Source: Thermoplasmatales archaeon
Lineage (GTDB): Archaea; Thermoplasmatota; E2; DHVEG-1
Assembly: GCA_023128855.1 (NCBI GenBank)
Contig: JAGMDE010000001.1
Span: 1-34,115 of the forward strand
Direction: 5' to 3'
DNA: 34,115 bases
Below the pieces are notes generated by a model. The model searched no databases and was not told the DNA's origin. It worked only from the letters and a program-made list of their open reading frames with translations. Shown here in pieces: positions 12,798 through 33,174 of this stretch; position 1 is the stretch's first letter; the number at the start of each line of letters is the position of its first letter. The position numbers and the translations under genes are program-made.

Positions 12798-14599
12798 TCG
12801 ATATGATAAAATAAATCCTTATACATTTGTACAGCATGATATTCAGCATGTTCAATGTCAAATGGATTTTCTGATAAATCAAATCTTATCTTTGAATTAT
12901 TTTCAATAGATTTTTCTATAAGTTCAATAAACATTTTATAAAAGTTAGGATTATATTTTGTTAGAGATAAAGATTTGAAAAATGATGAGTCTATATTTGG
13001 TTTAAATTTTAAGTCTAACAAAGCCTGAAAATATTTTTTTGCATCTATAGGTTTGTTAATAGCCATATATAAGAATGGTAGAATGTGAAATAAATTTATT
13101 AGTTGACTACAATTTCCTCTATTCACATAAAAGTTATAGTAGTAAAGATCAGTTGATAAATATTTTTCTAGATTTTCAATTAAAGCTCTTATTTGATTTT
13201 TATTTTTAATCCAATTATCGTCTTTTATATAGTTGTAAAAGTCTTTTATGCCATAAAGATAGTTAATTCTTTCCTGAAAACCATTAATTTTTACAATTTT
13301 TTTAATAAAAAGATCAATATCAGTAGAAACAGAAGGAATAACTACTCTAACTGTAGGAAATTGTAAGATTTTATGAGTATAGTCTACCACCTGTAAATCC
13401 CATTTATTTTTTTTACAAATATCAGTAATTCTCTTAACATCATCAAAACTGTCGTTATTTTCCACACTATTTAAAGTATCAAAATCAATAATTTTCCCCT
13501 TCTCTAAAAAAGAAAGATTTCCATAGAAATCATAATATCTGGTAAAGTATTTGTAAGGTTTATCTACACCAAAATACTCTTTTCCAAGTTTTTTTACCCA
13601 AATATCATATAAAACTTTAGCGGCCTTTTGTTCAAAAACTTCTTTTCTATCTAAGTGAACAGTTTGAAAATATTCTACGAAACATCTCATTATAGCTTCA
13701 TGCAGATTGATATGAGCGCCTGCATTTACTCTTTTATAATTCCGTTCTTTTATCAATTTATTACTGCTATTTTTCAAGTTCTTATTTATAAATAAAACTC
13801 CTATAACAGGTAGACCTTTTGCTAAGGAAAAGTCCTTAATTATTACATCGATATTTAAAGAATCAAAAAGCTTAATGCAATCAAGTATTTGTTTGTTTTT
13901 TATGGATTCTGGATCGATAGTTGAGCTTTGAGTTTTTTCTGAAAATAATCTACTTGCAGCATAACGTTCAAAAATCTCAAAGGATGCTTGTGCGATGGCT
14001 TCTTCATGGGTATTACCTGCAGCTATACCATTTGATAAACTAATTAGTTCAACTAAATGTATCGGAAGTTTGATATATTTTTCATCCACAATTGAATAAG
14101 CATCTACTATGCAATCCATAAACCCTTCGTTTTTATATAATTCAAATGTTTCTTTAGTCAAATTCTCTTGAAAAAATGTATTAACGTATTGAAAATTAGT
14201 GCATAAACTATTGACCTCTTTTGAAAACCCTTTCAAAAAGTTTCTACTATTAACATTTTTTAATATTTTTTCATATTCCTCAGCATTTTCAGATAATGGA
14301 ATTTTTATCTCTAAAAAACATGCAGAAAACCTTTCAGCAAGCTCAGCATATGCACTTGCTTTAGCAAGATTGCTAGAAAAGCCTTTTCCATGTTGAGCCC
14401 ACCCCAATATATCTATTAAAGCACTTCCAACAAATATTTTAAAGTCTGAAGAGCTTATATTATCTTCTTTATAATTAATATCAAAACCAATTTTTTTAAA
14501 ACCATTTTTTATTCTTTTTATTGTATTTTTAGGAACATCACATTTATAATTTTGATATATTTTTGGAGACTGAGAAAGTTTCATTAAAACCATTATCAA
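12782..14599 (-). CDS. YcaO-domain protein (ATP-dependent amide backbone-activating enzyme family) with an uncharacterised ~270-aa C-terminal extension
   Basis: YcaO-type motifs GKGFSSNLAKASAYAELAERFSA and SNGIAAGNTHEEAIAQASFEIFERYA. Its 3' end overlaps the radical SAM gene by 16 nt (convergent). Confidence 0.85.
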   Translation of the reverse strand: MIMVLMKLSQSPKIYQNYKCDVPKNTIKRIKNGFKKIGFDINYKEDNISSSDFKIFVGSALIDILGWAQHGKGFSSNLAKASAYAELAERFSACFLEIKIPLSENAEEYEKILKNVNSRNFLKGFSKEVNSLCTNFQYVNTFFQENLTKETFELYKNEGFMDCIVDAYSIVDEKYIKLPIHLVELISLSNGIAAGNTHEEAIAQASFEIFERYAASRLFSEKTQSSTIDPESIKNKQILDCIKLFDSLNIDVIIKDFSLAKGLPVIGVLFINKNLKNSSNKLIKERNYKRVNAGAHINLHEAIMRCFVEYFQTVHLDRKEVFEQKAAKVLYDIWVKKLGKEYFGVDKPYKYFTRYYDFYGNLSFLEKGKIIDFDTLNSVENNDSFDDVKRITDICKKNKWDLQVVDYTHKILQFPTVRVVIPSVSTDIDLFIKKIVKINGFQERINYLYGIKDFYNYIKDDNWIKNKNQIRALIENLEKYLSTDLYYYNFYVNRGNCSQLINLFHILPFLYMAINKPIDAKKYFQALLDLKFKPNIDSSFFKSLSLTKYNPNFYKMFIELIEKSIENNSKIRFDLSENPFDIEHAEYHAVQMYKDLFYHIDQTFK

Positions 14600-14720: not shown

Positions 14721-14860
14721 TAGATGCTAAGGTAAAAAAATGAGAAAGAAACAACGTTCAACAGGAGGGAATTAGCCAAAAGGACTGAACGGTTTTTGAC
14801 ATGTTTGCAGATATAAATCTGAGAAAGAAAGAGATTTTGTTTTAATAAAATATTAATTTT
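14721..14860. repeat. orphan copy of the intergenic Q/P repeat module (compare 20061-20215)
   Basis: tagatgctaaggtaaaaaaatgagaaagaa...aaaaggactgaacggtttttgacatgtttgcagatataaatctgagaaagaaagag aligns closely by eye with gtagttgctaaggtaaaaaatgaggaagaa...aaaaggactaaacggtttttgacatgtttgcttatgtgaatctgcgaaggaatgatg. Here no plus-strand gene follows it. Confidence 0.6.
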
Positions 14861-14891: not shown

Positions 14892-17297
14892 CTAATATTG
14901 TAGTCCTAATCGTAGTAGTAAACGTTGTAGTATTGGGAACGCATTTGGAAACCGCTCTAAGAGTCTCATGAAGAATGTATAGGGTATTAGTTTACTTCTT
15001 GGCATTGTGACTTCTAATGGATTTGACCAAGGACTCTCTGCACCATAATCATCTTTAACTCTACAATATAAAGTATAAGTTCCTTCCTTCTCCCATTTAT
15101 GAGATGCACTAGCAGTTTCACCAGAAGGAATCGGACCAATATATGTATTTGACCCATCTTTCCAATTGAAATCATATGTTAATTCATCACTCTCAACATC
15201 AGTAGTACAACTGGTATAAGTATATGTTTCCCCAACCGTTCCCTTTGTTGGACCATCAAAAGAGGGTTTAAATGGAGGATTGCCCACGCTATTCACAATA
15301 ATGGATTTCGCATCAGAAATCGGACTTAAAGCGCCATGCTCATCTTGAGCTATCACACGACATTGATATGTTTTATGTTCATAATCATACCAATTCCAAA
15401 TAAGCTCATATGTCTCACCAGAATTATAGAGCGTACCAAATGGTTCCATATAATCTTTCCCAAAGACGATCACATAACATAATTTATCAGAATCAGGATC
15501 TGTTGCAGAAGTAGAATATGTATAATCATGCCATTCTCTAGCATAATTTGGAGCATTAAGTGTACTAGTTTTAGATGGAGCTGTATTTAAAACTCCCATA
15601 GAGGTAATAAGTTCTCCTTCATATTCATCCAAGAGGACAGGATGAAAATCATTATCTGTAAAATAATCGAGATAATCAAGCACCATTGGTTCAGCGTAAT
15701 TAAATAACTCTTCTGCGGTTATGTCATCATCAGCGTTATTATCAGCAGCTCCATATAATCCTGAACAGATATATTGTGTAAATAAGCCTCCATTGTACCC
15801 AAGAATGTTATGAGATATTGTTGTTTCATCTGATCGACATGCCATAAGTATTACCCTGTTATCGCCAGCAAGAGTTTGAGCAAACTTTTCAGCCCATTCA
15901 TCATGATACATACCATATCCATCAGGCATTCCACCACTATGACAACAATCAAGAATTACAATTAATGATCCCTCAAACCTCTCTAAATCTTCTGCAAATT
16001 CATAATCCCACCATTTTTCATCATTAAATAATACCATCCATTGATTTGTTCCATCATCACCACCATGGCCACTAAAATAAATCAAAGAGACATCATTAGA
16101 ATCCTCATTATCATCTAACCATCCAAGAGCATCATCGCGAATAGCAGATTTTGTACATTGACTTTTTTTCAAAATTTCCATCTGAGAATCAGAAAACCAG
16201 TTTGCTCCAAACATCAAGGCATCCTTAATATGATCAACATCAAGGTCAGAACCAAGGCTCTCGTCAACACCGATAAGGACACTATTATAATTTATATCCC
16301 CCATGTTATAAACATATACATTCACAGTATCGTTATCAGAATAAAGTTCTCTATCAAAACTTCTTGCATAGATAGTATATCGCCCATTTGGAAGACCTGT
16401 AGTATCCCATTCATATGTCCAAGATGTTGTACCAGTTGCTGTCTCCCAATTGCCAAGAAGATCTATTTTAACTTCAACATATTCAAGGTTTCCCTCAGGG
16501 TCATTAGCATTCCCAGTGATTGTTATTGTCCCACTTACTGTTTGTCCTTCCACGGGATAGGTTATTTCAACAGTTGGCAGTTGATTTCCATACTGGGTTA
16601 TCCAGAAATCATCAATATAAAAGTCTTGAGTGGCCAATCGAAAGGCCTCTATATGCCAAATTTCTATACCTATCTCCACCGGGTGTCTAAATCCTCCAAC
16701 AGCGTCAATAGAATCGTCATGAAATAAATGTACTTCATCTGCAGTTATCGTAAATTCCTCTTCAATCCACCTAGTTGTTGATGGATCAATATGTGGAACG
16801 AATTCTTGAAAAACATTACCATCGTGCCATCGAATCTGTCCAGTCCTTCTATGAATATTAACAACGCCACCGGTACCATGCTCCGTAAAGTCTTCATAAA
16901 TTGTTGCTTGCATACTTAAATCTGGTGAATATATTCTATAATGAATAACATAACTCCCAGGTGGTCCAAAATACATTTGACGCAAGCTGCAATATTTGTC
17001 TGGATCTGCACTTGAACCATGAATCTTCATTACCATATTATCTGGGTCTAAGGGATCAATACATGCCTCAATGTATTGATTTTCAGTTATCCCGTCTGTT
17101 GACCATCCTCTTTCTGCTTTAGGTGATTCACCAACATTGTAATCATCGAAATCATCATACCTTATGTAAGTTCTTAATTGGTTACTGGTGGTTGTAATTT
17201 TTCCAATATCCCCACTAATACTTGGTAAAATACTTGCTCCAAGGAATAGGATTATTATTCCTATTACCAATCCTTTTCTAAAAACATTTTTTGTCAT
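14892..17297 (-). CDS. large secreted clan-CD (caspase/legumain-like) cysteine peptidase with Ig-like and PKD-like domains
   Basis: N-terminal signal/anchor (GLVIGIIILFLGASILPSISG). His-Gly and Cys catalytic dyad context (LIYFSGHGGDDG ... LIVILDCCHSGGM). An Ig-like module (TVEITYPVEGQTVSGTITITGNANDPEGNLEYVEVKI) and two C-terminal PKD-like units (..CRVIAQDEHGALSPISD.., ..YCRVKDDYGAESPWSNPLEV). GGGAGAGGT SD upstream. Confidence 0.8.
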   Translation of the reverse strand: MTKNVFRKGLVIGIIILFLGASILPSISGDIGKITTTSNQLRTYIRYDDFDDYNVGESPKAERGWSTDGITENQYIEACIDPLDPDNMVMKIHGSSADPDKYCSLRQMYFGPPGSYVIHYRIYSPDLSMQATIYEDFTEHGTGGVVNIHRRTGQIRWHDGNVFQEFVPHIDPSTTRWIEEEFTITADEVHLFHDDSIDAVGGFRHPVEIGIEIWHIEAFRLATQDFYIDDFWITQYGNQLPTVEITYPVEGQTVSGTITITGNANDPEGNLEYVEVKIDLLGNWETATGTTSWTYEWDTTGLPNGRYTIYARSFDRELYSDNDTVNVYVYNMGDINYNSVLIGVDESLGSDLDVDHIKDALMFGANWFSDSQMEILKKSQCTKSAIRDDALGWLDDNEDSNDVSLIYFSGHGGDDGTNQWMVLFNDEKWWDYEFAEDLERFEGSLIVILDCCHSGGMPDGYGMYHDEWAEKFAQTLAGDNRVILMACRSDETTISHNILGYNGGLFTQYICSGLYGAADNNADDDITAEELFNYAEPMVLDYLDYFTDNDFHPVLLDEYEGELITSMGVLNTAPSKTSTLNAPNYAREWHDYTYSTSATDPDSDKLCYVIVFGKDYMEPFGTLYNSGETYELIWNWYDYEHKTYQCRVIAQDEHGALSPISDAKSIIVNSVGNPPFKPSFDGPTKGTVGETYTYTSCTTDVESDELTYDFNWKDGSNTYIGPIPSGETASASHKWEKEGTYTLYCRVKDDYGAESPWSNPLEVTMPRSKLIPYTFFMRLLERFPNAFPILQRLLLRLGLQY

Positions 17298-17515
17298 ATG
17301 TTTCTACCTCTCCCTAATTATAAAATTAGCGTGATTGTAATATATTATTCTGTTTTAAATGTATTCATAACAATTGTTAAACGTAACAAAATGTTATAAA
17401 AAACCCTGGGTTTTTTGCATTCTGATTTCATTTACTTCAGTTTAGGCATCAACCTAAAACTCTCTCCAAAAATGTTAATATTTAAACATAGATTATTTGG
17501 AATAAATGGTGTATT

Positions 17516-17680
17516 ATGGAAGTTCGTGCTTGTCCAAGTTGTGGGAGTAAAAATATTTTTAGTTATCTCTCTGTAATTGGTATGAATTATCTTTGTAAAG
17601 ATTGTGGATTTCAGGGTGTTCCTTTTATTTTTGATTCTGAGGAGGATTATCAGGTGTTTCTTGATGAATTGATAAAATAA
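17516..17680 (+). CDS. zinc-ribbon micro-protein (54 aa)
   Basis: Own translation: MEVRACPSCGSKNIFSYLSVIGMNYLCKDCGFQGVPFIFDSEEDYQVFLDELIK (CPxCG...CxxCG). It is the first ORF of cassette unit 1. It is under 60 aa, so it is not in the track. Confidence 0.5.
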   Translation: MEVRACPSCGSKNIFSYLSVIGMNYLCKDCGFQGVPFIFDSEEDYQVFLDELIK

Positions 17681-17809
17681 TCATGTGATTTTTTATACTG
17701 ATTTCATTTCAACTATTGAAATTTTTAAATGTTATAAATTATTTGTTATATAAAAAGAATTTTAAATGAACACATATTACAATTTTTAGTTGAGGGAGGT
17801 TAAAATCTT

Positions 17810-18538
17810 ATGGATAATTTGGAAAAAATTCAACAAACACAGAATTCTGGACAAAATATGCCAAATCAGCCACCAGGTTATGTTCAACAGGGTGATCAAC
17901 ATAGCTATTATCATGGTCCTTCAATTGGCAGTTTATTGGTAAAAAGCCGTTTATCCAAGATAGGACTTGTTCTAATTATATTATCAGTAATTGGGCTGAT
18001 AATATCATATGCGGTCCCATGGGGTTATGTAGACGCAGATGGCATAGATGAAAGAATGTTTGGTCATGATTTAGAAAATAAAGATGGACAAGATTTAGCA
18101 TCTATTTTAGGTTCTGGTAGCTCTTCTTCTTTTGAGGATACCACTTATGATGACTACATTGAAGGTACTCCTGTTTTAGCTGATATTGGATTTTTATTAT
18201 TGTTAGTCTTTGGGATTGTTATATTAATCCTTGGGCTTATGGAGTCAAACCAAAATATTATGAAATCATTGCTTTCATTCATTGGATTTATTATTGGTGT
18301 TATAGCTCTTATCCCTAGTCTATGGACTTTAATTGCTGGTATAAGATTTATTGGATATAATATATATATTGCATTAAATGGGGACATATATTCTGATAAG
18401 TTTATTGTTTTTCCAGCAGCCTATATAATTCTTACTTTCGGTTTTCTATGTTTTATTGCAGTGATATTATTAATAAAGGGAAAGAATAAATTGTTAAATA
18501 TGGGTATTTTTCAAAATCCTGTCTCTTCTCGGATGTGA
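17810..18538 (+). CDS. polytopic membrane protein with Q/P-rich N-terminus
   Basis: GAGGGAGG SD. A TM helix, a ~60-aa loop (VPWGYVDADG...), then three TM helices. Distant paralog of 18562..19314. Confidence 0.75.
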   Translation: MDNLEKIQQTQNSGQNMPNQPPGYVQQGDQHSYYHGPSIGSLLVKSRLSKIGLVLIILSVIGLIISYAVPWGYVDADGIDERMFGHDLENKDGQDLASILGSGSSSSFEDTTYDDYIEGTPVLADIGFLLLLVFGIVILILGLMESNQNIMKSLLSFIGFIIGVIALIPSLWTLIAGIRFIGYNIYIALNGDIYSDKFIVFPAAYIILTFGFLCFIAVILLIKGKNKLLNMGIFQNPVSSRM

Positions 18539-18561
18539 TATATTAAAGGAGGAAAAAAACA

Positions 18562-19314
18562 ATGAACGGGAATTTTATAGGAAGGGTTCAAAAACTTACA
18601 ATGATAATGTTATTAGTAAGCATTATCGCACTATTATTTATGCCTCTTCTACCATGGAGTTTTTATGAAAGTGATACGTCTTGGGGTTCTATTAAATATT
18701 ATTCCACTGAGGGAAATATTATGGTAGGTGGTGAGAGAGCAGAAGATGAAATAGATAATTATAATAAAGGGAGTGACTCATATGAATTATTAAAAGAAAC
18801 TATTTCAGCGAAGGATAATCTAAGTGGCATTGGTCTGTGTTTCTGGCTTTCACTAATCTTTACAATTATTCTTCTGGTTGGAATAAAAATATATAACATG
18901 GGGCAACAATACCAGTTGTTTTCAAATATAATCTTTCTAACTGGCATTATGATAATCATTTTTGCAATTTTCATTATTTTATATCACGTGTGGTTTATGG
19001 GAAACATCGGCGAACTTGCAGATATAGGTAATATTGATGTTGCTTTTAGTTTTAATTATCTGCCTTTAACTATGGGAATTATACTATTGATCGTATCAAT
19101 AATCTATGTGTTTAGTGTTGTTCCGATGGCAATATATGGAATTTCTTCTTCGTTACAGCATCGGATGATGGGCCATCAAGTTGGTATGCCACCACAACAG
19201 CCACCTCAGCAAACTCCGCAACCAACAGGTCATGGTTATTGCCTAGCATGCGGTGGAGCTAAATTAAGTGATACTCAGAAGTTTTGTCATAAATGTGGAA
19301 AGAAGCTAGTATAA
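18562..19314 (+). CDS. polytopic membrane protein with Q/P-rich linker and C-terminal zinc ribbon
   Basis: AAGGAGGA SD. Same architecture as the previous gene (LLPWSFYESDT loop). The C-terminus reads PPQQPPQQTPQPTGHGYCLACGGAKLSDTQKFCHKCGKKLV (CxxCG...CxxCG). Confidence 0.8.
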   Translation: MNGNFIGRVQKLTMIMLLVSIIALLFMPLLPWSFYESDTSWGSIKYYSTEGNIMVGGERAEDEIDNYNKGSDSYELLKETISAKDNLSGIGLCFWLSLIFTIILLVGIKIYNMGQQYQLFSNIIFLTGIMIIIFAIFIILYHVWFMGNIGELADIGNIDVAFSFNYLPLTMGIILLIVSIIYVFSVVPMAIYGISSSLQHRMMGHQVGMPPQQPPQQTPQPTGHGYCLACGGAKLSDTQKFCHKCGKKLV

Positions 19315-19354
19315 AAAGATGTTATGAAATTGTAATATTGGAGGAGGTATAGAT

Positions 19355-19921
19355 ATGAAAAAACAATTATTGATAGTTGGAATAACGTTGGTATTGTTAG
19401 CTGTTGGACTAAGTGGCTGTAACGAAAAAAGCACAGATACTGCAACAACGCTAGTTCAGTTTGTGAAGGATGATATTGCTAATACGCTGACTGTGGATGC
19501 TACTACTTCTAGTGATATTTTATGGAGTGATATTTATTTTGATGGTAATTGTGATACTAGAGGTCTTGGTCTTGGTACTTATGTTGTTGTTGGTGATGTG
19601 ATTCCTCATTGTTATGGTACGATTACTATTTATTATATGCCTGAGGAGGTGAAAGAGATTGTGTTGGATGTTTTTGAGTTTTCATCGGAACCTCGTCCTA
19701 GTATTGCGTGTGTTGAAGATAATAGCGCTAGGACTTTGACTGTGGTTAGTGCTTTTCCTTATGATCTTTTATGGAGTGATCTCAATATTATAGGTTCGTG
19801 TGATACTTCAGGTTTAAATGGCAATATTGAAGCAGGAGATCAAATTACAAATTGTTCTGGAAATATAATAATTGTGCTAATATCAACAGATTTAATACTC
19901 GGTAATTGGGATTTTACATAA
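19355..19921 (+). CDS. surface lipoprotein with two copies of a ~75-aa Cys-pair beta domain
   Basis: Lipobox signal MKKQLLIVGITLVLLAVGLSGC. Internal duplication: ..LTVDATTSSDILWSDIYFDGNCDTRGLGLGTYVVVGDVIPHCYGTITI.. and ..LTVVSAFPYDLLWSDLNIIGSCDTSGLNGNIEAGDQITNCSGNIII.. Conserved leader gttatgaaattgtaatattGGAGGAGG. Confidence 0.85.
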   Translation: MKKQLLIVGITLVLLAVGLSGCNEKSTDTATTLVQFVKDDIANTLTVDATTSSDILWSDIYFDGNCDTRGLGLGTYVVVGDVIPHCYGTITIYYMPEEVKEIVLDVFEFSSEPRPSIACVEDNSARTLTVVSAFPYDLLWSDLNIIGSCDTSGLNGNIEAGDQITNCSGNIIIVLISTDLILGNWDFT

Positions 19922-19923
19922 GT

Positions 19924-20067
19924 TTATAGTTTTGGCATCAACCTAAAACTAACCTCTGAAGGTTGAGGTTCATCAACCCAGTCATCTAAACAACGCTGAA
20001 TCAGCCTGCGTGATTGCCAATATGAGTCGTGTTTATTTTTATATTTTTCAAGAAGTTTCAGTAGTTG
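19924..20067 (-). pseudogene. C-terminal remnant of a second copy of the multi-HTH gene (compare 25061..25783)
   Basis: Own translation of the open minus frame: QLLKLLEKYKNKHDSYWQSRRLIQRCLDDWVDEPQPSEVSFRLMPKL*. The intact gene reads ..CKLLDRFNKKHEDYCSSRRLIQRSIDDWIDDEASDYVGESFRLMQKQ*. There is no start codon, and an in-frame stop lies at 20068-20070. Confidence 0.7.
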
Positions 20068-20277
20068 CTAAGGTAAAAAATGAGGAAGAACGAGTCTCTA
20101 ACAGGAGAGAAAATGGTAAAAGGACTAAACGGTTTTTGACATGTTTGCTTATGTGAATCTGCGAAGGAATGATGTTTTTCTGTCAAAACCTATGAAAATG
20201 TTAATATGTTCATAGTTAGATGTAATATTGTATATAAGAACAGATGTTATGAATTGTAGATCGGAGGAGGCATAGAT
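20061..20277 (+). promoter_or_regulatory. conserved Q/P module: promoter-like region and leader of cassette unit 2
   Basis: Repeated at 14721-14860 (Q part) and 21873-21987 (P part). Contains aaaacctatgaaaatgttaatatgttcatagtt (TATA-like) and the leader gttatgaattgtagatcGGAGGAGGcatagatATG. Confidence 0.6.
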
Positions 20278-20631
20278 ATGAAAAAACAAATCATAATTAT
20301 TGGAATAATGCTGATGTTGTTAGCTGTTGGATTAAGTGGTTGCACTGACCAAAGTGGAGAAAGCAAATTTGTTGGAACTTGGACATATACTGGGGGTGAT
20401 TTCTATTATGATACTCTTCATCTTTATTCGGATGGGGTATTAAGTGGAATTAGTCGCTTCAATCCTGATTATGCTCCTGCCGATCCAGGTACTTGGGAAG
20501 CTAATGATACTCATTTAATTCTCCATTTCACCGATTTCGATGATCTTATATATAGTTACAAATTTACCAGCAGCGACACACTTGTTTTAACTGCATCATG
20601 GGGAGATACAGGCATCTACAAGAAATCATAA
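20278..20631 (+). CDS. small surface lipoprotein, lipocalin-like domain
   Basis: Signal MKKQIIIIGIMLMLLAVGLSGC. The mature part (FVGTWTYTGG..LHLYSDGVL..GTWEANDTHLILHF..YSYKFTSSDTLVL) parallels the N-terminal domain of the 21988 product. Confidence 0.85.
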   Translation: MKKQIIIIGIMLMLLAVGLSGCTDQSGESKFVGTWTYTGGDFYYDTLHLYSDGVLSGISRFNPDYAPADPGTWEANDTHLILHFTDFDDLIYSYKFTSSDTLVLTASWGDTGIYKKS

Positions 20632-20677
20632 TCCAGAGAGTATGAGAGGTAAATTAAGTTTGAAGGAGGAAATAAAA

Positions 20678-21785
20678 ATGAGAAAGACCGCAATAGGACT
20701 AATTATGTTTTTGATAGGAATGTTTATCTTATCTACAATAAACATTAATTGCCTAGGGTATCAACACCCAGATGATGTAGTACACATAGAAATTCCACAA
20801 CAAGGTGAAATATGGCATAGGGGAGAAACCCATGAAATAAAATGGAGGTGCGTTGGTTCAAATGCTTTTCGTCCTACAAGATGGGATGTTTATCTGGTTT
20901 TTGCAGACACAAGGTCCCCACAATATGAACTTTATCAAAAAGAACGAATTAAGTTAGCAACTGTTGATTATGATTATAATTATGATGGAAACTACACATG
21001 GACAATACCATTGGACTTGCCTGAGTCGTCATCGGATGGGTATTCTTTTGATATTGAAGGAACTGATCGCTGGGATTTCTATGGATCTGGAGGCAGCATC
21101 TACATATTAGACCCAGGTGAAGAATTAGTCACTTCTCCCGATGATGAGTATTGGCTTTCAAGAGCAATTATGTCTGAAGCAAGTGTGGGAACACAACAGG
21201 AGCAAATAGCAGTTGGATGGTGTGTGCTAAATAGATTTAATGACGGACGGTTTGGAGATTCTTTGGAAGGAGTTATATATGACGGATTTGCATATAATCA
21301 ACAACCAACACAACAAATAAAAGAATTGGCAAACGAAATTCTTAAGGGATTACATCCTGATCCAACTGACGGAGCAGTATTTTTCTTTTCACCCAGGAGT
21401 ATGCCAAAAGAGGGAGAGAATACAACGGGTTATGATGTTGGCGGAGGACCTCATACTTACTGTGCCTGGAACATCAAATAGAGTCTATTTTCCATATTGG
21501 GCGAAACCGACTGAAGAAATAAACGAAAATACCCAATCATATCAAATCTTAACTGAATATGGTTATGGAGATATGGAATGGCGAGAATTAAATGGTATCA
21601 GAAATTGGTATTTCATGTTTTATCATCCAATATCGTCACAGTATGAATCTGAAGAGATCGGTGAGCCAAATGATGGTACAATCACAGGAACAAGTGCTGA
21701 CGGCACTCCTGGCTTTGAAATGATATTTGTTTTCTTGGCAGTAACATTGTTATTATTCTGGAAAAGAAAAAGTAAAAACCTATAG
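20678..21785 (+). pseudogene. SleB-like cell-wall hydrolase with Kre9/KNH-like N-domain and PGF-CTERM anchor, broken by a +1 frame change (ORFs 20678..21481 and 21432..21785)
   Basis: ORF1 has a signal peptide (MRKTAIGLIMFLIGMFIL), a beta-sandwich-like IEIPQQGEIWHRGETHEIKW, and a Hydrolase_2/SleB-like LSRAIMSEASVGTQQEQIAVGWCVLNRFNDGRFGDSLEGVIYDGFAYNQ. It stops at 21481. ORF2, in the next frame, has no signal peptide but ends in GTPGFEMIFVFLAVTLLLFWKRKSKNL (PGF-CTERM). Confidence 0.7.
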
Positions 21786-21987
21786 CTTTGGCATCAATCT
21801 AAAACTAGTGTCACCATTCTCCTTGCTTTGGTATCAACCTAAAACTCTCTCCAACATACTCGATTTAATAGAGAATCTGAGAAGGAAGGAGCTTTTACTG
21901 TTAAAACCTATAAAAAAATTAATATGTTCATAGTTCGATACAATATTGTCTATAAGAATAAATGTTGTAGATTGGGGAGGAAAAAAT
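21786..21987 (+). promoter_or_regulatory. two tandem boundary cores plus the conserved P module and leader of cassette unit 3
   Basis: GGCATCAATCTAAAACT (21790-21806) and GGTATCAACCTAAAACT (21830-21846). They are followed by gaatctgagaaggaagg...aaaacctataaaaaaattaatatgttcatagtt...GGGGAGGaaaaaatATG, which aligns with 20155-20277. Confidence 0.65.
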
Positions 21988-22926
21988 ATGAAGAAACAAT
22001 TATTAATAGTTGTAATAACGCTGATATTATTGGCTGTTGGGCTTAGCGGCTGTAACGAAAAAGGCATAGATATATTAGGAAAGTCAAATGAAGAAAAGAT
22101 TTTAGGAACGTGGGGTATAGTGGTGTCAGAAGATGAAGAAACACCAATATATAGTTTCTTTTCTAATGGAACGTTTTCTGTATCTGCTATGATGCCTGAT
22201 TTTTGGTCAAAGTCTGCCACTAGACAAACTATTTGGGGAACATATGTAATGACTGATGAAACATTAGCTATGAATCGAAAAGGGGATGCAAAGGCTTTTG
22301 AATATTCTTTTTCTGATAATGGTAAAAAACTTACATTAATAGATGTAGAGCAGGGGGGTCAATTCGCCGTTCTCACAAAATACGATTCACCACCACAAAT
22401 ACCATCAATACAGTTTATTAAAAATGATATAGGCTACATATTCACATTAACTGTTTCAGCCGTAGACCCATCAAATGTACCATGGAGCAATATCGAAATA
22501 ACAGGTACATGTGATACATCTGGTCTTGGCACCTATGTCGCTGTGGGCGATATGATAACAGATTGTTCAGGTACATTAACTATAAGAGATGTGTCAACAA
22601 ATATCTTGCTAGGTTCTTGGACATTATCAGGTTCTCTTGCTCCTAATCTTGCTTGGACGTTAAATGATGCAGAGGATACAATTACAATTACTTCTGGGTC
22701 TTCTTCGGATACTTATGGGGCTTCGTCTACTGATGGTAATCTAATGTTTAAGTCACCAGAAGGTACTTATTATGTAAAAGCTGATTTATCCCTTAGTACG
22801 TTAGAAACTGGATTGTCTACTGCACCTATTTCTGCAGGTGATATTATTTCAGGATTTTCACCAGGTACATGGCATATAATTTGGGTTCCAACTGATAAAT
22901 TACTTGGTACGTTGGATTTTAGTTGA
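21988..22926 (+). CDS. mosaic surface lipoprotein (lipocalin-like domain plus Cys-pair beta domain plus a degenerate third domain)
   Basis: Signal MKKQLLIVVITLILLAVGLSGCNEK, nearly the same nucleotides as the 19355 signal. A domain like the 20278 product (ILGTWGIV..FFSNGTF..WGTYVMTDETLAM..YSFSDNGKKLTL), then a domain like 19355 (..LTVSAVDPSNVPWSNIEITGTCDTSGLGTYVAVGDMITDCSGTLTI). I trimmed the start to the ATG at 21988; the track starts at 21946, inside the leader. Confidence 0.85.
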   Translation: MKKQLLIVVITLILLAVGLSGCNEKGIDILGKSNEEKILGTWGIVVSEDEETPIYSFFSNGTFSVSAMMPDFWSKSATRQTIWGTYVMTDETLAMNRKGDAKAFEYSFSDNGKKLTLIDVEQGGQFAVLTKYDSPPQIPSIQFIKNDIGYIFTLTVSAVDPSNVPWSNIEITGTCDTSGLGTYVAVGDMITDCSGTLTIRDVSTNILLGSWTLSGSLAPNLAWTLNDAEDTITITSGSSSDTYGASSTDGNLMFKSPEGTYYVKADLSLSTLETGLSTAPISAGDIISGFSPGTWHIIWVPTDKLLGTLDFS

Positions 22927-22962
22927 AAAGGTGGTTATGAAATTGTAGTTTGAGGGAGTAAA

Positions 22963-23871
22963 ATGAAAAAAAATGAATATGTAAGAGAAAAAGAGGTAAA
23001 AAAGTATAAAGGTAAGATTATCGGGAAGATATTTGCAATTTCTATTGCTTTTATAGTTGTTGGAAGTTGTCTAGCATTATATCTCTCGATGAATGGGTTA
23101 GAGACAAATAATCTAGAGGATTATGAAATCACTACTATTACGTCTCTGTCACCCCTCCCTATTGTAAGTGGAATTGATGGGAATACGTTTTTGGAAGACG
23201 AGGCTGGAATATCTGCATATACAAATGTTGAAGGCGAAATAAATCTTGGACTAGCAAAAACTGCATTCAGAACGATAGAATATGAAACCAATGAATACAT
23301 AATTGGGTCTATTCCACTTCCAGATTATTCAGAGACGGAGGACGTCCACTGCTATGTCCATAAGGACGGATGGGTGGTATCATATTACTTAAAGGAGGAA
23401 CCAGCAGCAAAGATAGTCGATTGGGAGAATTATGGTACAGATGAACAAATAACTGGAACGAAACTCGAACAAAGCATAGTTGTAGTTTGCGATGCTGCAG
23501 GTGTCATAAAAGGAGAGGTTCAGTATTATGATTATAGGTATCCAAATGCAAATAAACTTATGATTGTTGCAGAGGCATTGTGGGAGTCTACTGAAACAGA
23601 TACATTTGATATAATACTGCCAGATGATTTCGTATTTTATGAGCGGTCATATTCGCATTGTAATAGATATACATCCTCAAGTAGTTATTCTCGCATGTAT
23701 ATCGACGAAGAAGAGATTAGTCGGATATATGGTAGTGAGACAAACTATGATCTGCTTTCACCTTCGAAGCTTTCACCTGATGTATCACATTCTATAAAAA
23801 CCACTTCGTATCATTGTTACAATGAGATGGGTGTATTCAGTGCTATCGTGCTTGTGTATCAGGAGACATGA
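22963..23871 (+). CDS. N-terminally membrane-anchored extracellular protein, unknown function
   Basis: GAGGGAG SD, conserved leader ggttatgaaattgtag, and a single N-terminal TM (IFAISIAFIVVGSCLALYL). Confidence 0.75.
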   Translation: MKKNEYVREKEVKKYKGKIIGKIFAISIAFIVVGSCLALYLSMNGLETNNLEDYEITTITSLSPLPIVSGIDGNTFLEDEAGISAYTNVEGEINLGLAKTAFRTIEYETNEYIIGSIPLPDYSETEDVHCYVHKDGWVVSYYLKEEPAAKIVDWENYGTDEQITGTKLEQSIVVVCDAAGVIKGEVQYYDYRYPNANKLMIVAEALWESTETDTFDIILPDDFVFYERSYSHCNRYTSSSSYSRMYIDEEEISRIYGSETNYDLLSPSKLSPDVSHSIKTTSYHCYNEMGVFSAIVLVYQET

Positions 23872-23921
23872 GAGGAGAAGATGAGGAAACTGCTATGAGA
23901 AGATAATTTATAAGGTGAAAA

Positions 23922-25058
23922 ATGAAAATAAAAATAATGCTTTTAATTGTAATTTTTCTAATTGTCACTCAAATAACAGTAGTAAGTGCATCACGAATCA
24001 TTGTTCAGAATGCTGATACTGTTTGGGAGACAATTCCTAAATATTCATCAGGTTTAACCCATGCAGCTACGGGTGTAACACCAAGAGTAAAAGCAGAATA
24101 TGCAAACTCGTTATCTCAGCATAATTTACAAGATTCGGAGAGTTTAAATCAGTTAGCCAGTGGAATTTCTTCGAGGATAATAGTAGAATATGCGAACTCT
24201 GTTTCTGATTTTGACTTGTATCGACCTGATTTTATACAGGCACCATCGTCAGAACCTGAAACGCAACCCGAAAATATTATTCCAACTGAAGATCCGTTCA
24301 ATTATCAAAGTGAATATGAACTAAATGAGGAGAAGTTGAGAGCTGAAGAAATAGAAGCTCTTCCAATTGTTATGAACTATGCAAATGAATACCATATAAG
24401 TCCTGCTTTGATAATGGCTATTATTAGGCAGGAAAGCAATTTTATTGCAAATGCAAATGGTAATGATTATATCGGCTACATGCAAGTAAGCTGGGATGCA
24501 GCTACCCATCAAAGTATAGAGGATATGACAAGTGACGAATATAAAGGAACAAAGAGTGATTGGTTGAGCGAAGGAAAAGATCCTGACCTAAATATTATGT
24601 ATGGTACTCGCTACCTCAGAATTTTAAATATTATTTTTGAAGAGGGAAAATTTTTATACGACTCAGTATCTGCAACCAAAGTCTCTGATATACAGGAGCG
24701 TTTAAATTTTGTATTAGCAGCCTACAACGGAGGACAAGGGAGAATAGCCAACGCTCAAAAGATTGCTAAAGAAAATAATAAAGATCCTACCAAATGGGAT
24801 GAAGTAAAAGAATATTTAGAGGAAGCTGGCGCTAATACTGCCAAAGCAATAGAAATTAAAAACTATGTATATGGGGTAATAAAAGGTAGAGATATAATAG
24901 ATGATGAACAGAGAGGTTATGAGTTTTTCTTAACGATTCGAGTTTTTCCATCTGATAAAGCATCAGACAGTGAAGAAGGTACTCCTGGATTTGAATTATT
25001 ATTTTTCATTGTAGCAATTGCACCTATCCTGTTATTAAAACGAAAAAGAAAAATATAA
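23922..25058 (+). CDS. lytic transglycosylase (SLT/GH23-like) domain protein with PGF-CTERM anchor
   Basis: Signal peptide. Three copies of an SRIIV(E/Q)(Y/N)A(N/D)SV-like motif. SLT signature ISPALIMAIIRQESNFIANANGNDYIGYMQV (candidate catalytic Glu codon at 24432-24434) and LAAYNGGQGRI. The C-terminus is EEGTPGFELLFFIVAIAPILLLKRKRKI. Confidence 0.85.
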   Translation: MKIKIMLLIVIFLIVTQITVVSASRIIVQNADTVWETIPKYSSGLTHAATGVTPRVKAEYANSLSQHNLQDSESLNQLASGISSRIIVEYANSVSDFDLYRPDFIQAPSSEPETQPENIIPTEDPFNYQSEYELNEEKLRAEEIEALPIVMNYANEYHISPALIMAIIRQESNFIANANGNDYIGYMQVSWDAATHQSIEDMTSDEYKGTKSDWLSEGKDPDLNIMYGTRYLRILNIIFEEGKFLYDSVSATKVSDIQERLNFVLAAYNGGQGRIANAQKIAKENNKDPTKWDEVKEYLEEAGANTAKAIEIKNYVYGVIKGRDIIDDEQRGYEFFLTIRVFPSDKASDSEEGTPGFELLFFIVAIAPILLLKRKRKI

Positions 25059-25060
25059 AT

Positions 25061-25783
25061 CTATTGTTTTTGCATCAACCTAAAACTCTCTCCGACATAA
25101 TCTGATGCTTCATCATCTATCCAATCATCAATAGAACGCTGAATTAGACGTCTACTACTGCAATAATCCTCATGTTTCTTGTTGAATCTGTCAAGAAGTT
25201 TACATTGATCTTTATTTGAGATTTTAATACCAAGCAGATAACTAAGCTCTTCTATTGCACTGTAACTTATGATTCGGTCGGGTTTCTCCTTGAAAAAGGC
25301 CTCGATAGTTTGCTCTTCTCGCCCAGGGAGATAAAAAAATGTTTTGTTCTTGTATCTTGCTGTTCTTATTATTGGAAACTTATGCTGCAAGATTCTTACA
25401 ACTTGCACATTAAAATCAGAAATCAAATAACCATCAGACATAAGCCTACATAGAAGCTTAATTCCATTCTTTCTAATAATATGATTTCCTTGAGACCTAT
25501 ACCCTTCTATTCCTCTTGTAAGATTATACACAGTGCCAATGTTCAAACCACATAGTTGCGCTGCTTCTGCCTTTGTATGTCCTTCTTTTATTGCTTTAAC
25601 TACTTTGTTTCTAGTTTCTATTGGGATTTTCTTTGATTGATAGAGATATTTGCATCTGTTGTATATCGTACTTCGATGAACATTGTATTTATCTGCAAGG
25701 TCTTTGACTTCATGCCCTTCATTGATAAGTTTAGCAATATGCTCACAGTCTTCTTTTGTAAGCTTTTTTCTTCTTGTCATCAT
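25061..25783 (-). CDS. multi-HTH DNA-binding protein (two resolvase/IS630-type HTH motifs plus a winged-helix-like region); only intact copy of a repeated gene
   Basis: HTH1 LTKEDCEHIAKLINEGHEVKDLADKYNVHRSTIYNRCK; HTH2 TRNKVVKAIKEGHTKAEAAQLCGLNIGTVYNLTRG. I could not recognise a DDE or recombinase catalytic motif. I trimmed the start to the ATG at 25783; the track uses a GTG at 25801. TTTTAAATA lies ~25 nt upstream on the minus strand. Confidence 0.8.
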   Translation of the reverse strand: MMTRRKKLTKEDCEHIAKLINEGHEVKDLADKYNVHRSTIYNRCKYLYQSKKIPIETRNKVVKAIKEGHTKAEAAQLCGLNIGTVYNLTRGIEGYRSQGNHIIRKNGIKLLCRLMSDGYLISDFNVQVVRILQHKFPIIRTARYKNKTFFYLPGREEQTIEAFFKEKPDRIISYSAIEELSYLLGIKISNKDQCKLLDRFNKKHEDYCSSRRLIQRSIDDWIDDEASDYVGESFRLMQKQ

Positions 25784-25839
25784 TTGAAAAAGCGAAAGCA
25801 CTAGTATTTAAAAGTGTTGAAAAGGACTGGGAAACTCTA

Positions 25840-26908: not shown

Positions 26909-27022
26909 ATGGAAGGAAAAACATTAACGGTAATTGGATTGAGTGTATTGCTTGTCTTATCCGTATTTTCTGGATGTGTTGACAATGACTTCTTCTGGAA
27001 GAATGCGACTAACGATGATTAG
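26909..27022 (+). CDS. lipoprotein signal-peptide stub (37 aa), possibly a truncated gene remnant
   Basis: Own translation: MEGKTLTVIGLSVLLVLSVFSGCVDNDFFWKNATNDD. AGAGAGGAAAA SD. It overlaps the 3' end of the convergent gene 26957..28141 by 66 nt. Confidence 0.3.
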   Translation: MEGKTLTVIGLSVLLVLSVFSGCVDNDFFWKNATNDD

Positions 27023-28141
27023 CTGATGTAAATGCCATATCCACTCATATACTCTAAGAAAAACCACTCTAATTTTATGATAAAGCGGCACAATTATTGA
27101 GTGGGGTTCGAGAATTTCACCAGTTGCAGGGATTTTAAAGTTAACAGGAAGAGGACGCTCTCCATTGTTTCTATTTTCCGCATCGATAATCTCAATTCTA
27201 CAAAAAGGGCCTATTCTGTCGTCATGTGCATAAAACTCTTTTATTCTCAACCCTTTTAATGGATAATAAAAATCAGCTTTTGGAATCGTCTCTGTCTTGT
27301 TACAAATTTTATCTTCTATTCTGTATCCAGAAACCGTTATTGAGTGTAAACCGACTCCTACAACATCAACGTTTAATATTATAGGAATGCCCATTTTCAG
27401 ATATGAATATATGAAGCTTACAATAGGTAAAGGATTTGTTTTTGGTGCATATTTAATATTCCTTACATGGGGCTCCAATCCAACTTCATGAATTGCCTGG
27501 CACATCTGCATAATATTTAAACCGCCACTAGGGATTGGTCTTGAGCCGAACCAGTATTGTGTGGCAAATTTTGTTATTTCAATCGGAGTGGGGGACAAAC
27601 ATTGATCGAATATCTCTGACGTTTTGTGGAATGCAGACCAAAGTGCGCTTGTTGCACAAGCTGCCGCTACTGTATCCTGTTCTTGAAATGCAAGACTGTT
27701 TATTGAAAGAGGGATGCCGTATAGGTTAACATCGTATTTTCTATTGCAACAATATTGCCTTTTGTCACCATCAAGAAGATAGGTTTTTAATGCTGTTCTG
27801 CCAAAAATCGCTTCTGGCAATGGTTTAACAACGAGGAATCCTAAATAATTTTCTTGAAGGGTTGTTGTACTGATTTTTGTCTCCTTTCCACACAGAAGCG
27901 ATATAAATTCCTTTTTTTCAAAAGCAATATCCTTGAAGAAGTGAAGTCTTCTGCAAAATCTATCATAATCTGTCGAACATCGAACGTAATAATTTGAGAA
28001 ATCTATTAAAAAGTCTCTGTCGACATATTTGCGTTCGGCCAAAATCAATTTACAATTTATCTTATCAAGATAATCATGCATATATTTAAAGTGGGCGTCA
28101 GGATAGTTTTCATTTGGAGTTACTTTCCATTCAAAAATCAA
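26957..28141 (-). CDS. predicted papain-fold-like cysteine peptidase (tentative), 394 aa
   Basis: A long ORF with non-repetitive composition. Candidate nucleophile context FQEQDTVAAACATSALWSAF (Q-x6-C), downstream VGVGLHSITVSGY (His) and YAHDDRIG (Asp). The track start is a TTG with no SD; the first in-frame ATG is codon 21. The functional call is weak. Confidence 0.55.
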   Translation of the reverse strand: MIFEWKVTPNENYPDAHFKYMHDYLDKINCKLILAERKYVDRDFLIDFSNYYVRCSTDYDRFCRRLHFFKDIAFEKKEFISLLCGKETKISTTTLQENYLGFLVVKPLPEAIFGRTALKTYLLDGDKRQYCCNRKYDVNLYGIPLSINSLAFQEQDTVAAACATSALWSAFHKTSEIFDQCLSPTPIEITKFATQYWFGSRPIPSGGLNIMQMCQAIHEVGLEPHVRNIKYAPKTNPLPIVSFIYSYLKMGIPIILNVDVVGVGLHSITVSGYRIEDKICNKTETIPKADFYYPLKGLRIKEFYAHDDRIGPFCRIEIIDAENRNNGERPLPVNFKIPATGEILEPHSIIVPLYHKIRVVFLRVYEWIWHLHQLIIVSRILPEEVIVNTSRKYG

Positions 28142-29282: not shown

Positions 29283-29310
29283 TTTACTAATAAATAGGAG
29301 CAGGGACCAT

Positions 29311-29536
29311 ATTTTACAAAAAGTTATGTTTTCTCCTGTTAAAATAATAAAAAAACGCTGAGGAGGAGATATTAGCGTGTATTTACCGGTAAAAAAATAA
29401 TGTTTTCTCCTGTTAGCAACTTTTTACAAAATTATACCAAAGATATTCTAGGTTGTGGTCAGATATACCTTTTTTCTAAATAAAATATAAAAAAATCCCG
29501 AGGCGGGCTCACCTTGCAAAAGTTAAGAGCCCGGCC
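29311..29536. repeat. composite repeat locus B: X module (29311-29469) plus GC-rich Y hairpin (29497-29536)
   Basis: X aligns along almost its full length with 33013-33174 (attttacaaaaagttatgttttctcctgt...cgctgaggaggagatatta..gtatttaccggtaaaaaaataatgttttctcctgt...). Y is cccgaggcgggctcaccttgcaaaagttaagagcccggcc, compared with 32969-33012. Confidence 0.75.
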
Positions 29537-32968: not shown

Positions 32969-33174
32969 GGGGCCCGAGGCGGGCTTACCTTGCAAAAGTT
33001 AAAAGCCCGGCCATTTTTTACAAAAAGTTATGTTTTCTCCTGTAAAACAATAGTAAAATTACGCTGAGGGGGAGATATTAACCTGTATTTACCGGTAAAA
33101 AAATAATGTTTTCTCCTGTAAACTTGAATTGTAAAATTATAGCAGAGATATCCTGAGCTTTGGGAAGTGATACC
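32969..33174. repeat. composite repeat locus C: Y hairpin (32969-33012) directly followed by the X module (33013-33174)
   Basis: Same modules as locus B but in Y-X order. A degenerate X tail (tttctctccttaaaaacaaactgtgctaattat) precedes Y, suggesting tandem (Y-X)n ancestry. Confidence 0.75.

Follow-up and report, generated by a model that had tools for sequence, protein, structure and literature searches.

An accessory-gene array beside a tandem helix-turn-helix gene in a Thermoplasmatales archaeon, with signs of recombination at gene-end repeats

The gene units and the anchor gene

The window, by which the whole analysed stretch of 34,115 nt from an uncultured sediment archaeon is meant, carries three blocks of plus-strand ORFs (17516-19921, 20278-21785 and 21988-25058), placed as in an earlier sequence-only reading. 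Unit 1 (17516-19921) encodes a 54-aa zinc-ribbon protein, two multi-pass membrane proteins (242 and 250 aa) and a 188-aa lipoprotein. Unit 2 (20278-21785) encodes a 117-aa lipoprotein and a split SleB-like cell-wall hydrolase in two pieces (20642-21481 and 21432-21785), the second with a PGF-type anchor at its end. Unit 3 consists of a 312-aa lipoprotein (21988-22926; LSGC lipobox) paralogous to the 188-aa lipoprotein of unit 1, a 302-aa membrane-anchored protein (22963-23871) for which a family match was looked for and none was found, and a protein (23922-25058) with a lytic transglycosylase (SLT) domain (7e-16), a signal peptide and a PGF-type C-terminal anchor that scores 22.9 bits with Heimdall-CTERM, under the cutoff of 24. 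Each unit includes a Sec or lipoprotein signal peptide, and the unit products are surface-anchored or secreted. Units 1-3 share one orientation; a fourth cargo gene, opposite to them (14892-17297, minus strand), encodes an 801-aa secreted caspase-like (Peptidase_C14) protein with Big_7 and PKD domains. The region was also assembled independently (DAOWJJ010000111.1), with 100% identity over 18.7 kb; this makes a misassembly unlikely but says nothing of population variation.

The array is anchored by an intact minus-strand gene, HTH-A (25061-25801; 239 aa when counted from the ATG at 25780, with the C-terminus …GESFRLMQKQ and a stop). The gene is conserved and multi-copy, and its product is a DNA-binding protein with tandem helix-turn-helix (HTH) domains. 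P0001 is 100% identical to it, and more than 240 homologues show 60-83% identity. Two copies of the gene occur on one contig; the window copy is a third and probably derives from the same MAG as that contig, because its accession number is nearby. Pfam matches are to HTH-type families alone (HTH_23, HTH_28, HTH_7 and others), and the protein divides into tandem HTH repeats, a winged-helix-like domain and a helical C-terminal part. By sequence, the nearest protein of solved structure is the CRISPR-repeat-binding protein 2lvs (E 3.9e-5), the match lying in the N-terminal tandem HTH repeats. The NCBIfam Cbp1 model gives the HTH-A protein 16.6 bits, where the cutoff is 140, a resemblance and not membership. 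The 'Hin recombinase' label found in databases is based solely on the HTH_7 match. PDB matches to Hin span only its 52-residue DNA-binding domain, and a serine recombinase was rejected, the N-terminal resolvase catalytic domain with the serine nucleophile being absent.

Promoter-like heads and a TctA-like relic

Units 1-3 each have their own BRE/TATA-like box and Shine-Dalgarno leader, and the boxes may act as promoters. The plus-strand heads of unit 2 (20155-20277) and unit 3 (21873-21987) are copies of one repeat, D4, with 82% identity over 102 nt (20155-20256 and 21873-21974). The former comprises a box at 20194-20207, a leader variant one base shorter at 20246-20258 and the SD GGAGGAGG; the latter a box at 21912-21925, a second TATA-like sequence, TTGTCTATAAGAA, and the SD GGGGAGG. 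The shortened head described ahead of unit 1 (17462-17515, plus strand) is real: its box (17468-17481) is exactly AAAAATGTTAATAT, which recurs with one and two mismatches at 20194 and 21912, and it directly abuts a core repeat. The leader GTTATGAAATTGTA precedes internal genes as had been reported, with exact copies in unit 1 (19321-19334) and before the 302-aa protein gene (22934-22947). The signal-peptide regions at 19343, 20266 and 21976 (repeat D1) are 77-85% identical over 97 nt, as against 34-43% amino-acid identity, in one domain, for the mature lipoproteins. The picture of a modular array of surface and secreted proteins, with heads better conserved than bodies, therefore holds.

The 'orphan head' at 14721-14860, previously taken for a plus-strand head, is of another kind and points the opposite way. 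Together with a second minus-strand copy (20065-20196) it forms repeat D3, with 74% identity over 122 nt (14735-14856 and 20075-20196; BLASTN 75.5% over 139 nt, E 2e-25). D3 is a relic of a TctA-like membrane-protein gene and corresponds to its promoter and its first ~13 codons; the second copy has decayed, with loss of the start codon and a 1-nt deletion. The first copy stops at a breakpoint, CAGTAG, which recurs joined to many different partners, and this recurrence points to a second process beyond what the model proposed below explains.

The core repeat and the 3′ end of the HTH gene

A 17-nt core, GGCATCAACCTAAAACT, occurs with at most one mismatch at five sites between 17.4 and 25.1 kb, all on the plus strand (17445, 19934, 21790, 21830 and 25071). 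When up to three mismatches are allowed, 0.09 matches are expected by chance, and six were reached in 0 of 100 shuffles. The self-comparison and BLASTN proposed as a check thus bear out the repeats, both the cores and the heads (74-85% identity). Cores do stand at the block ends, beginning 12, 4 and 12 nt beyond the stop codons at 19921, 21785 and 25058; there are five of them, not three, two forming a 40-nt tandem at 21787-21846.

The core had been regarded as a tail motif of the plus-strand units. It is in fact the final codons (…SFRLMPK) of the convergent HTH gene in reverse complement, and within that gene it occupies 25068-25087 (minus strand) as the codons for SFRLMQK. At the C-terminus of the HTH family FRL[MIF]PK is near-universal, the residues that follow are variable, and the tails beyond FRLMPK are 0-6 residues long. 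The four cores outside the gene are relics of HTH gene ends, and tblastn finds HTH relics at 19930-20058 (E 1e-9), 21823-21861 and 17441-17476, all on the minus strand. The first, containing the core at 19934-19950, represents the last 45 codons of a different paralogue, HTH-B (KLLEKYKNKHDSYWQSRRLIQRCLDDWVDEPQPSEVSFRLMPKL and a stop; 53% identity; repeats D8 and D10). The second is a displaced 3′ end (…EYVGESFRLIPKQGEW and a stop), termed core1; core2 (21787-21806, minus strand) lies 40 nt past it. The third is a solo relic (…GESFRLMPKLK and a stop) with its core at 17445-17461; its downstream flank (17396-17440) is similar to core flanks in the related loci L001 and L166, and the caspase-like gene lies between this solo core and the first D3 copy, in the direction of the HTH gene. 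Unit 3 is bracketed by 39-nt direct repeats (D2; 21823-21861 and 25064-25102; 87% identical), with HTH-A intact. All repeats within the window are old (74-87% identical), so that recent activity at this locus itself is not indicated.

Related metagenomic loci

The canonical locus of related MAGs comprises the HTH gene, core1 (…KQGEW and a stop), core2 40 nt on, 0.2-1.5 kb of variable DNA, D3, the TctA-like gene, DUF2240 and PPDK, with the TctA-like gene as the first conserved one to follow the HTH gene in related genomes. The core1-core2 layout of the window is also found behind QGEW-type HTH genes in L007, L127, L133, L134, L136 and L147, and window positions 20065-21861 repeat the canonical interval, its ends being HTH codon ~227 and TctA codon ~13. 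Displaced 'core-QGEW' relics lie behind inserted cargo both in the window (21823-21861) and in L001 (~11685-11720).

Border modules are common to loci whose cargo differs. L136 and L007 are 85% identical; their homology ends exactly at the end of core2 and restarts inside D3. Between the blocks the two loci have unrelated cargo, 659 nt at one and 240 nt at the other. Further core arrays exist in L166 (10700, 11767 and 12146) and L168 (10700, 11081 and 11462), and L128, L142, L149 and L165 have one extra core each. All solo cores by an HTH gene or fragment share its orientation; the sole other such match is at window position 1852, distant from the array and with three mismatches. Two identical copies of a 381-nt cassette stand in L168 at the place where L169, L142 and L149 have a single one, with flanks 98.8-99.9% identical, a one-versus-two count that rests on short-read assemblies and may be an assembly effect. 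The comparison with related genomes suggested earlier thus yielded core arrays, cargo turnover at the core and a cassette of differing copy number, and the view that recombination has shaped the region is upheld by these and by the relic junctions.

Origin of the array

The array is best read as filling the variable spacer behind the tandem-HTH gene, which is conserved and multi-copy, in Thermoplasmatota allied to Marine Benthic Group D. Its three self-contained expression units run antisense to that gene, and the unit borders are relics of the gene ends on either side of the canonical spacer, namely the last 12-45 HTH codons and D3. In our judgement there is about an even chance that 14.7-25.8 kb represents an expanded array of accessory genes which recombination at gene-end repeats has remodelled. 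The data suggest a locus that gains, loses and duplicates gene units via recombination at leftover gene ends. New DNA would enter by recombination at the conserved HTH 3′ end, restoring an intact HTH reading frame with a new tail of 0-6 residues. The old gene end and older cargo would be displaced downstream, so that units pile up between co-oriented cores, and recombination of core with core could then duplicate or delete units. Short-homology recombination or an unlinked site-specific enzyme may be responsible. Several observations weigh against this model, among them the age of the window repeats, the recurrent CAGTAG breakpoint of D3 and the negative recombinase scans of the window and related loci described below. 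The HTH homology retained at solo cores also differs in length (about 6, 15 and 110 nt), and HTH fragments in public data begin at many points, about aa 153 to 227; random truncation fits this variation better than a single crossover point.

A family of paralogous operons, arisen by local duplication and divergence, in which heads and cores are selected as cis-regulatory DNA and recombination is incidental, is a possible but rather doubtful alternative. The palindromic core, with the promoter boxes and leader, would then serve as operator or upstream site for the adjacent HTH protein, if that protein has a regulatory role. A core does lie upstream of each unit promoter (7, about 66-106 and about 260 nt away), the box abuts the core in unit 1 as well as in L142, L149, L168 and L166, and other HTH loci have the leader ahead of unrelated genes. 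The core forms an imperfect palindrome (AGTTTTAGG-N6-CCAAAACT), solo cores are as conserved as in-gene ones, units 1 and 3 have truly paralogous lipoproteins, and the HTH protein, a three-domain DNA binder, has a CRISPR-repeat-binding protein as nearest solved relative. Yet the cargo genes of different units and loci are mostly unrelated, and the displaced QGEW tail and core2 have been copied intact; the 45-codon relic can still be translated as an HTH C-terminus uninterrupted by stops, something an operator would not need. In-gene cores differ at synonymous sites, which argues that the peptide is the entity under selection there, and solo copies keep the palindrome arms past about 5 bp no better.

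In an integron-like system, which we consider improbable, the core would be the attachment site for a recombinase encoded elsewhere or for the HTH protein itself, in a site-binding or catalytic capacity, and units would be excised as one-core circles and inserted at the HTH 3′ end. The sharp core junctions recurrent across MAGs, the uniform core orientation, the HTH gene always at one end with fixed polarity and the cassette duplication exactly from core to core accord with such a system, as does the 9-6-8 inverted-repeat layout of the core, which is comparable to that of tyrosine recombinase core sites. Against it, Pfam scans of the main window ORFs detected no recombinase, integrase or transposase, and the scanned or precomputed-annotation genes of related loci gave none bar one decayed DDE fragment in L001; nor did Pfam, NCBIfam, PHROGs, a PDB sequence search or Foldseek place a catalytic domain in the HTH protein. 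Folding the DNA of every core region, in both strands, gave no attC-like hairpin (9-bp stem at most, z-scores -2.6 to +0.6), and Rfam gave no match. Units carry their own boxes and leaders instead of being promoterless cassettes in one orientation under a common promoter, and the caspase-like gene is reversed. The varying length of the relics likewise speaks against such a system. A bolder form of capture is a long shot: together with the palindromic core located at the 3′ end of its gene, the tandem-HTH protein would constitute a hitherto unrecognised integrase-less archaeal platform, the protein binding the core and directing insertion and excision of promoter-bearing cassettes, with the D3 terminus as a second active end that moves a portable promoter module about the genome.

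The phase- or antigen-variable lipoprotein locus first envisaged, with one head or expression site switched among variable bodies, is most improbable: conserved 5′ regions and lipoprotein signal peptides (D1, D4) on differing mature parts, and the near-identical signal peptide of an unrelated lipoprotein in L152, fit it, but every unit has a complete head with its own promoter-like box, lipoproteins make up only 3 of 10 cargo genes, inverted repeats bracketing a promoter or unit do not exceed the chance level, and neither an invertase nor silent promoterless copies were found.

Comparison with known systems

Mycoplasma-type vsp, vlp and vsa loci contain several lipoprotein genes with a common conserved 5′ region and signal peptide. 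The present array resembles them in this feature and differs by having no switching device and cargo that is mostly not lipoprotein. The anchor protein is like Cbp1-type CRISPR-repeat-binding proteins in its tandem HTH and in the short direct-repeat array adjoining its gene, and unlike them in its extra winged-helix-like domain, its helical C-terminal part and a surrounding without a CRISPR array.

Tandem genomic islands inserted at the 3′ end of a tRNA or protein gene are flanked by direct repeats, regenerate their target and build repeat arrays by serial insertion. Here too the direct repeats correspond to a target 3′ end and the target gene is regenerated; the units, in contrast, are small (0.4-3.2 kb), an integrase was found in none of them, and a border is also formed by another gene end, that of the TctA-like gene at its 5′ side.

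Integron cassette arrays and CALINs have been reported in Archaea too, arrays without a linked integrase being common (PMC9668308). Like the HTH array, they combine one-directional variable genes, a short repeated site between them and an adjoining fixed anchor gene, and their cassette content differs between relatives. The HTH array differs from them in lacking IntI and an attC hairpin, in a repeat that is the relic of a protein-coding gene end, and in cassettes that have their own promoters, often hold several genes and converge on the anchor instead of diverging from it.

In polymorphic toxin genes (Rhs, CdiA), an intact main gene with a new end is accompanied by arrays of displaced pieces of its 3′ region, each such orphan module being an older gene end displaced by recombination at a conserved coding motif. 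HTH-A is likewise a main gene followed by displaced 3′ fragments. Orphan modules encode alternative C-terminal domains with cognate immunity; in the HTH array, by contrast, the swapped tail is 0-6 residues long without a toxin/immunity pair, the cargo consists of expression units that are independent and for the most part antisense, and a DNA-binding protein serves as anchor in an archaeal host.

Core repeats and the HTH gene

All repeats listed by the sequence-only reading were found in the window, well above chance, and the arrangement of conserved heads and tails that it described is real, although relics of neighbouring gene ends account for it. The 17-nt core occurs at 17445, 19934, 21790, 21830 and 25071, every time on the plus strand, against a chance expectation of 0.09. 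It had been taken for the tail of the three plus-strand units (unit 1, 17516-19921; unit 2, 20278-21785; unit 3, 21988-25058) but turns out to consist of the 3′ codons of an HTH gene and relics of them. On the minus strand, it reads AGT TTT AGG TTG ATG CAA AAA (S-F-R-L-M-Q-K), the last codons of the intact tandem-HTH gene HTH-A (25061-25801, minus strand). The four additional cores are, as judged from their sequences, relics of HTH gene ends. HTH-B (19930-20058) reads as the final 45 codons of a different HTH paralogue (E 1e-9), the displaced relic at 21823-21861 reads EYVGESFRLIPKQGEW and a stop, with a second core 40 nt further on, and the solo relic at 17441-17476 reads …GESFRLMPKLK and a stop. 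In-gene cores vary at synonymous sites (AGG/AGA/CGT, TTG/CTG/TTA); therefore, the peptide is under selection in the gene, and solo cores are gene-derived, not the reverse. The core is also a modest palindrome, AGTTTTAGG-TTGATG-CCAAAACT, for which DNA folding gave no attC-like fold.

After the terminal cores of three loci stands a conserved flank, GAAATCAGAATG(C/T)AAAAAAC(C)CAGGGTTTTTT, containing the palindrome (AAAAAACCC.GGGTTTTTT) (window 17396-17433 and, in related metagenomic loci, L001 ~2760-2800 and L166 ~12180-12210); a second, weaker copy lies within unit 1 at 17672-17709.

The HTH-A protein (239 aa; 100% identical to MCK4364440.1) has two N-terminal HTH domains, to which an AlphaFold model (pLDDT 76) would add a winged-helix-like middle domain and a helical C-terminal part. 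Its best solved relative by sequence is 2lvs, a CRISPR-repeat-binding tandem-HTH protein (E 3.9e-5). No catalytic domain was detected by Pfam, NCBIfam, PHROGs, PDB sequence search or Foldseek, and the label ‘Hin recombinase’ was rejected, its sole basis being HTH_7. Other enzymatic assignments were also discarded: Foldseek against the PDB gave nothing below E 0.07, multi-HTH matches in BFVD (labelled transposase or endonuclease) were weak, with TM below 0.3, and a LAGLIDADG-like middle domain (…LMTDGYLISDF) lacked statistical support. The family is highly uniform (60-83% identity, more than 240 members, including one in the Marine Benthic Group D single-cell genome SCGC AB-540-F20), and its C-terminus is nearly always FRL[MIF]PK plus 0-6 variable residues, a tail that is most frequently QGEW. 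Two full HTH genes occur on one contig; since its accession numbers are close to those of the window, the MAG of the window probably carries at least three HTH genes.

The D3 repeat

The segment 14721-14860, previously considered an orphan head, is one of two window copies of the repeat D3 (the other at 20065-20196). Read on the minus strand, D3 corresponds to the upstream region and the initial ~13 codons (M-x-VLSHFFAFGTTV…) of a gene for a membrane protein, to which precomputed annotation assigns Pfam TctA (PF01970); this reading frame is the coding frame, because inter-locus changes sit at third codon positions. The TctA-like gene is absent from the window, and both window copies of D3 have lost the start codon. 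At least 25 copies were counted among the collected HTH loci, all in the orientation of the HTH gene. In most copies, homology ends at CAGTAG (plus strand), past which the sequence differs per copy; three of the partners at this breakpoint are HTH genes cut at codon 194 (window), ~183 (L166) and ~176 (the HTH-family protein P0154). An indel between L155 and L157 has one boundary near a D3 terminus, at junctions that are heavily rearranged.

This common terminus, …CTACTGT on the HTH strand, adjoins many different neighbours (window 14721 and 20065; L166 5776, 7365 and 14136; many other loci), and D3 resembles, in its behaviour, the invariant end of a portable repeat carrying a promoter. A gene start often lies 80-300 nt past the terminus in L166 and the window (YcaO), and D3 copy 1 of the window is directed into the YcaO start. 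A structured RNA was rejected, as the consensus fold of 11 copies contained zero pairs.

Canonical locus and layout of the window

A canonical order is shared by loci L002, L007, L135, L136, L165 and L170: the HTH gene ends in core1 (…KQGEW and a stop), core2 follows 40 nt later, and 0.2-1.5 kb of variable DNA then precedes D3, the TctA-like gene, DUF2240 and PPDK. In the window, read along the minus strand, HTH-A is followed by unit 3 (antisense) and a head; next come HTH codons from ~227 to the end with core2, unit 2 (antisense), and a head with D3 up to TctA codon ~13; then HTH-B codons 194-238, unit 1 (antisense) and a promoter-like box; then the last 12 HTH codons, a caspase-like gene (sense) and D3 to TctA codon ~13; and finally unrelated chromosome (YcaO). 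Compared with the canonical locus, the unit borders are therefore all made from the two gene ends framing the canonical variable spacer.

Proposed recombination at the borders

Between loci L136 and L007, ~85% identical, homology breaks off exactly at the final base of core2 and begins again within D3, and the cargo between these modules is unrelated (659 versus 240 nt). More generally, cargo genes are mostly unrelated across loci and border modules are common to them. Relics of the core-QGEW type displaced behind inserted cargo are found at window 21823-21861 and, as a decayed copy after a 1-kb lipoprotein gene, at L001 ~11685-11720. Co-oriented core arrays also stand behind the HTH gene elsewhere (three cores and an upstream relic in L166, three in L168, one extra core each in L128, L142, L149 and L165). 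Solo cores beside an HTH gene or fragment are all in HTH orientation, the lone exception (window 1852) being a chance-level match with 3 mismatches. The junction between promoter box and GGAGAG-core at window 17462 recurs in L142, L149, L168 and L166; because one L166 copy reads GGAG-GTTTTAG, matching AAAACCTCC beside the box in D4-type heads (those of units 2 and 3), such heads seem to carry half a core. In L168, two identical 381-nt cassettes each comprise an 86-aa membrane-protein gene, box and core; the cassette is single in L169, L142 and L149, with flanks 98.8-99.9% identical, a one-versus-two difference that derives from short-read assemblies.

A viral origin has no support, as an IMG/VR search returned zero HTH homologues among viral contigs, and the repeats are neither tRNA-derived attachment sites nor known RNAs, the tRNA scan of the window giving zero genes and the Rfam scan zero matches. 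The proposal of a phase-variable lipoprotein locus gave negative membership tests. No recombinase linked to HTH loci was detected in the window or in the related loci scanned or annotated, and the HTH-gene neighbours in L140 and L161 include no integrase; they comprise restriction-modification genes, surface proteins and a protein with a ParB-N domain. One precise crossover fits less well: because the length of HTH sequence kept in relics varies, and public HTH C-terminal fragments begin at positions ranging between about residues 153 and 227, the relic pattern seems better matched by truncation and by short-homology recombination between paralogues. The window repeats are old (74-87% identity). 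The best-supported reading is an array of accessory genes that undergoes recombination behind a multi-copy HTH gene.

Expression signals and products of the units

The head pairs are 74-82% identical across 102-139 nt (BLASTN E about 1e-24 to 1e-25), and the three lipoprotein signal-peptide regions 77-85% across 97 nt. The A/T-rich box AAAAATGTTAATAT that opens each unit (17468, 20194 and 21912), 35-70 nt upstream of the initial start codon, probably fits an archaeal BRE/TATA element. T-runs, at which archaeal transcripts would be expected to end, lie between the last stop codon of each unit and the neighbouring core. A scan for sigma-70 promoters and hairpin terminators gave background level, these models not being applicable to archaea. 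Internal genes are preceded by the leader (AAAGAAAGAGAT)GTTATGAAATTGTAG-N-TGAGGGAG-N-ATG, whose 14-mer has exact copies at 19321 and 22934 and which is found ahead of unrelated genes in further HTH loci as well. The ~35-nt form (AAAGAAAGAGAT)GTTATGAAATTGTAG..TGAGGGAG (window 19310-19354, 20235-20277 and 22925-22962) occurs in several MAGs (L137, L161, L002 and L156) and may act as an internal promoter or translation leader specific to the lineage.

Unit products bear predicted Sec or lipoprotein signals. Two have bacterial cell-wall hydrolase domains (SLT and Hydrolase_2), and two end in a PGF-type anchor, for which the Heimdall-CTERM model gave 22.9 bits, below its cutoff of 24. The SLT lytic transglycosylase (23922-25058) and the SleB-type Hydrolase_2 protein (20642-21785) each combine a signal peptide with a PGF-type C-terminal anchor, which suggests surface enzymes targeting bacterial cell walls. 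The SleB-like gene is split into overlapping frames (20642-21481 and 21432-21785), the second piece anchored and without signal peptide; the split, also present in the second assembly, might stem from a frameshift or sequencing error, or mark a pseudogene. The N-terminal signal M..(N/K)xFRKGLV(I/L)GII(I/L)LF(V/L)G..(V/I)(I/L)P is common to many unrelated secreted proteins encoded near HTH genes (window 14892-17297; L001 5452; L126 10705; L128 5475; L130 3833; L157 2983), to all appearances a second conserved head family beside the lipoprotein head MKKQLLIVGI..LLAVGLSGC.

Genomic setting

Ordinary chromosomal genes flank the array, namely prefoldin, an FtsY/SRP54-type GTPase, a class Ib (Trp/Tyr-type) aminoacyl-tRNA synthetase, KaiC, YcaO, a B12-binding radical SAM protein and an MMPL transporter. 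The second public assembly of the region, 100% identical, was the sole contig found when seeking a close relative; in an exact 16-mer scan of the genome collection, nearly all matches were chance bacterial ones, only L007 and L017 being useful.

Several further features were observed. The B12-binding radical SAM and YcaO genes (11415-14599) are convergent with a 16-nt overlap and may form a peptide-modification pair. Outside the array, near MarR and MMPL genes, self-comparison revealed a ~165-nt repeat of 84% identity (29307-29471 versus 33011-33176). Upstream of HTH-A, 26957-28141 encodes a 394-aa protein without family match, whose 49%-identical homologue (L001 7821-9257) adjoins an inverted fragment of 28 N-terminal HTH codons; the gene is perhaps a conserved partner, and the L001 site perhaps an inversion breakpoint within an HTH gene. 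Elsewhere, restriction-modification genes are often upstream of HTH genes (L002 3709-6975, L140 5139-6898, L170 425-2203), and the HTH gene looks like a general marker of accessory or defence-rich regions.

Significance and comparison with known systems

Archaea of Marine Benthic Group D rank among the most abundant in sediments, and a detrital-protein lifestyle via secreted enzymes is proposed for them by metagenomic work (PMC6461988). If secreted and surface proteins sit in recombining arrays behind a multi-copy putative regulator, this would be a concrete mechanism for diversifying the extracellular toolkit of uncultured archaea, which here includes a caspase-like peptidase and a pair of enzymes with domains of the kind that degrade bacterial cell walls. 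The idea is directly testable using existing metagenomes and, if true, would add a cassette system in which recycled gene ends, not dedicated attC sites, serve for recombination. Membership tests separate the array from integrase-bearing islands and also from integron arrays, which it resembles in layout; it would work like orphan-module displacement arrays or additive islands.
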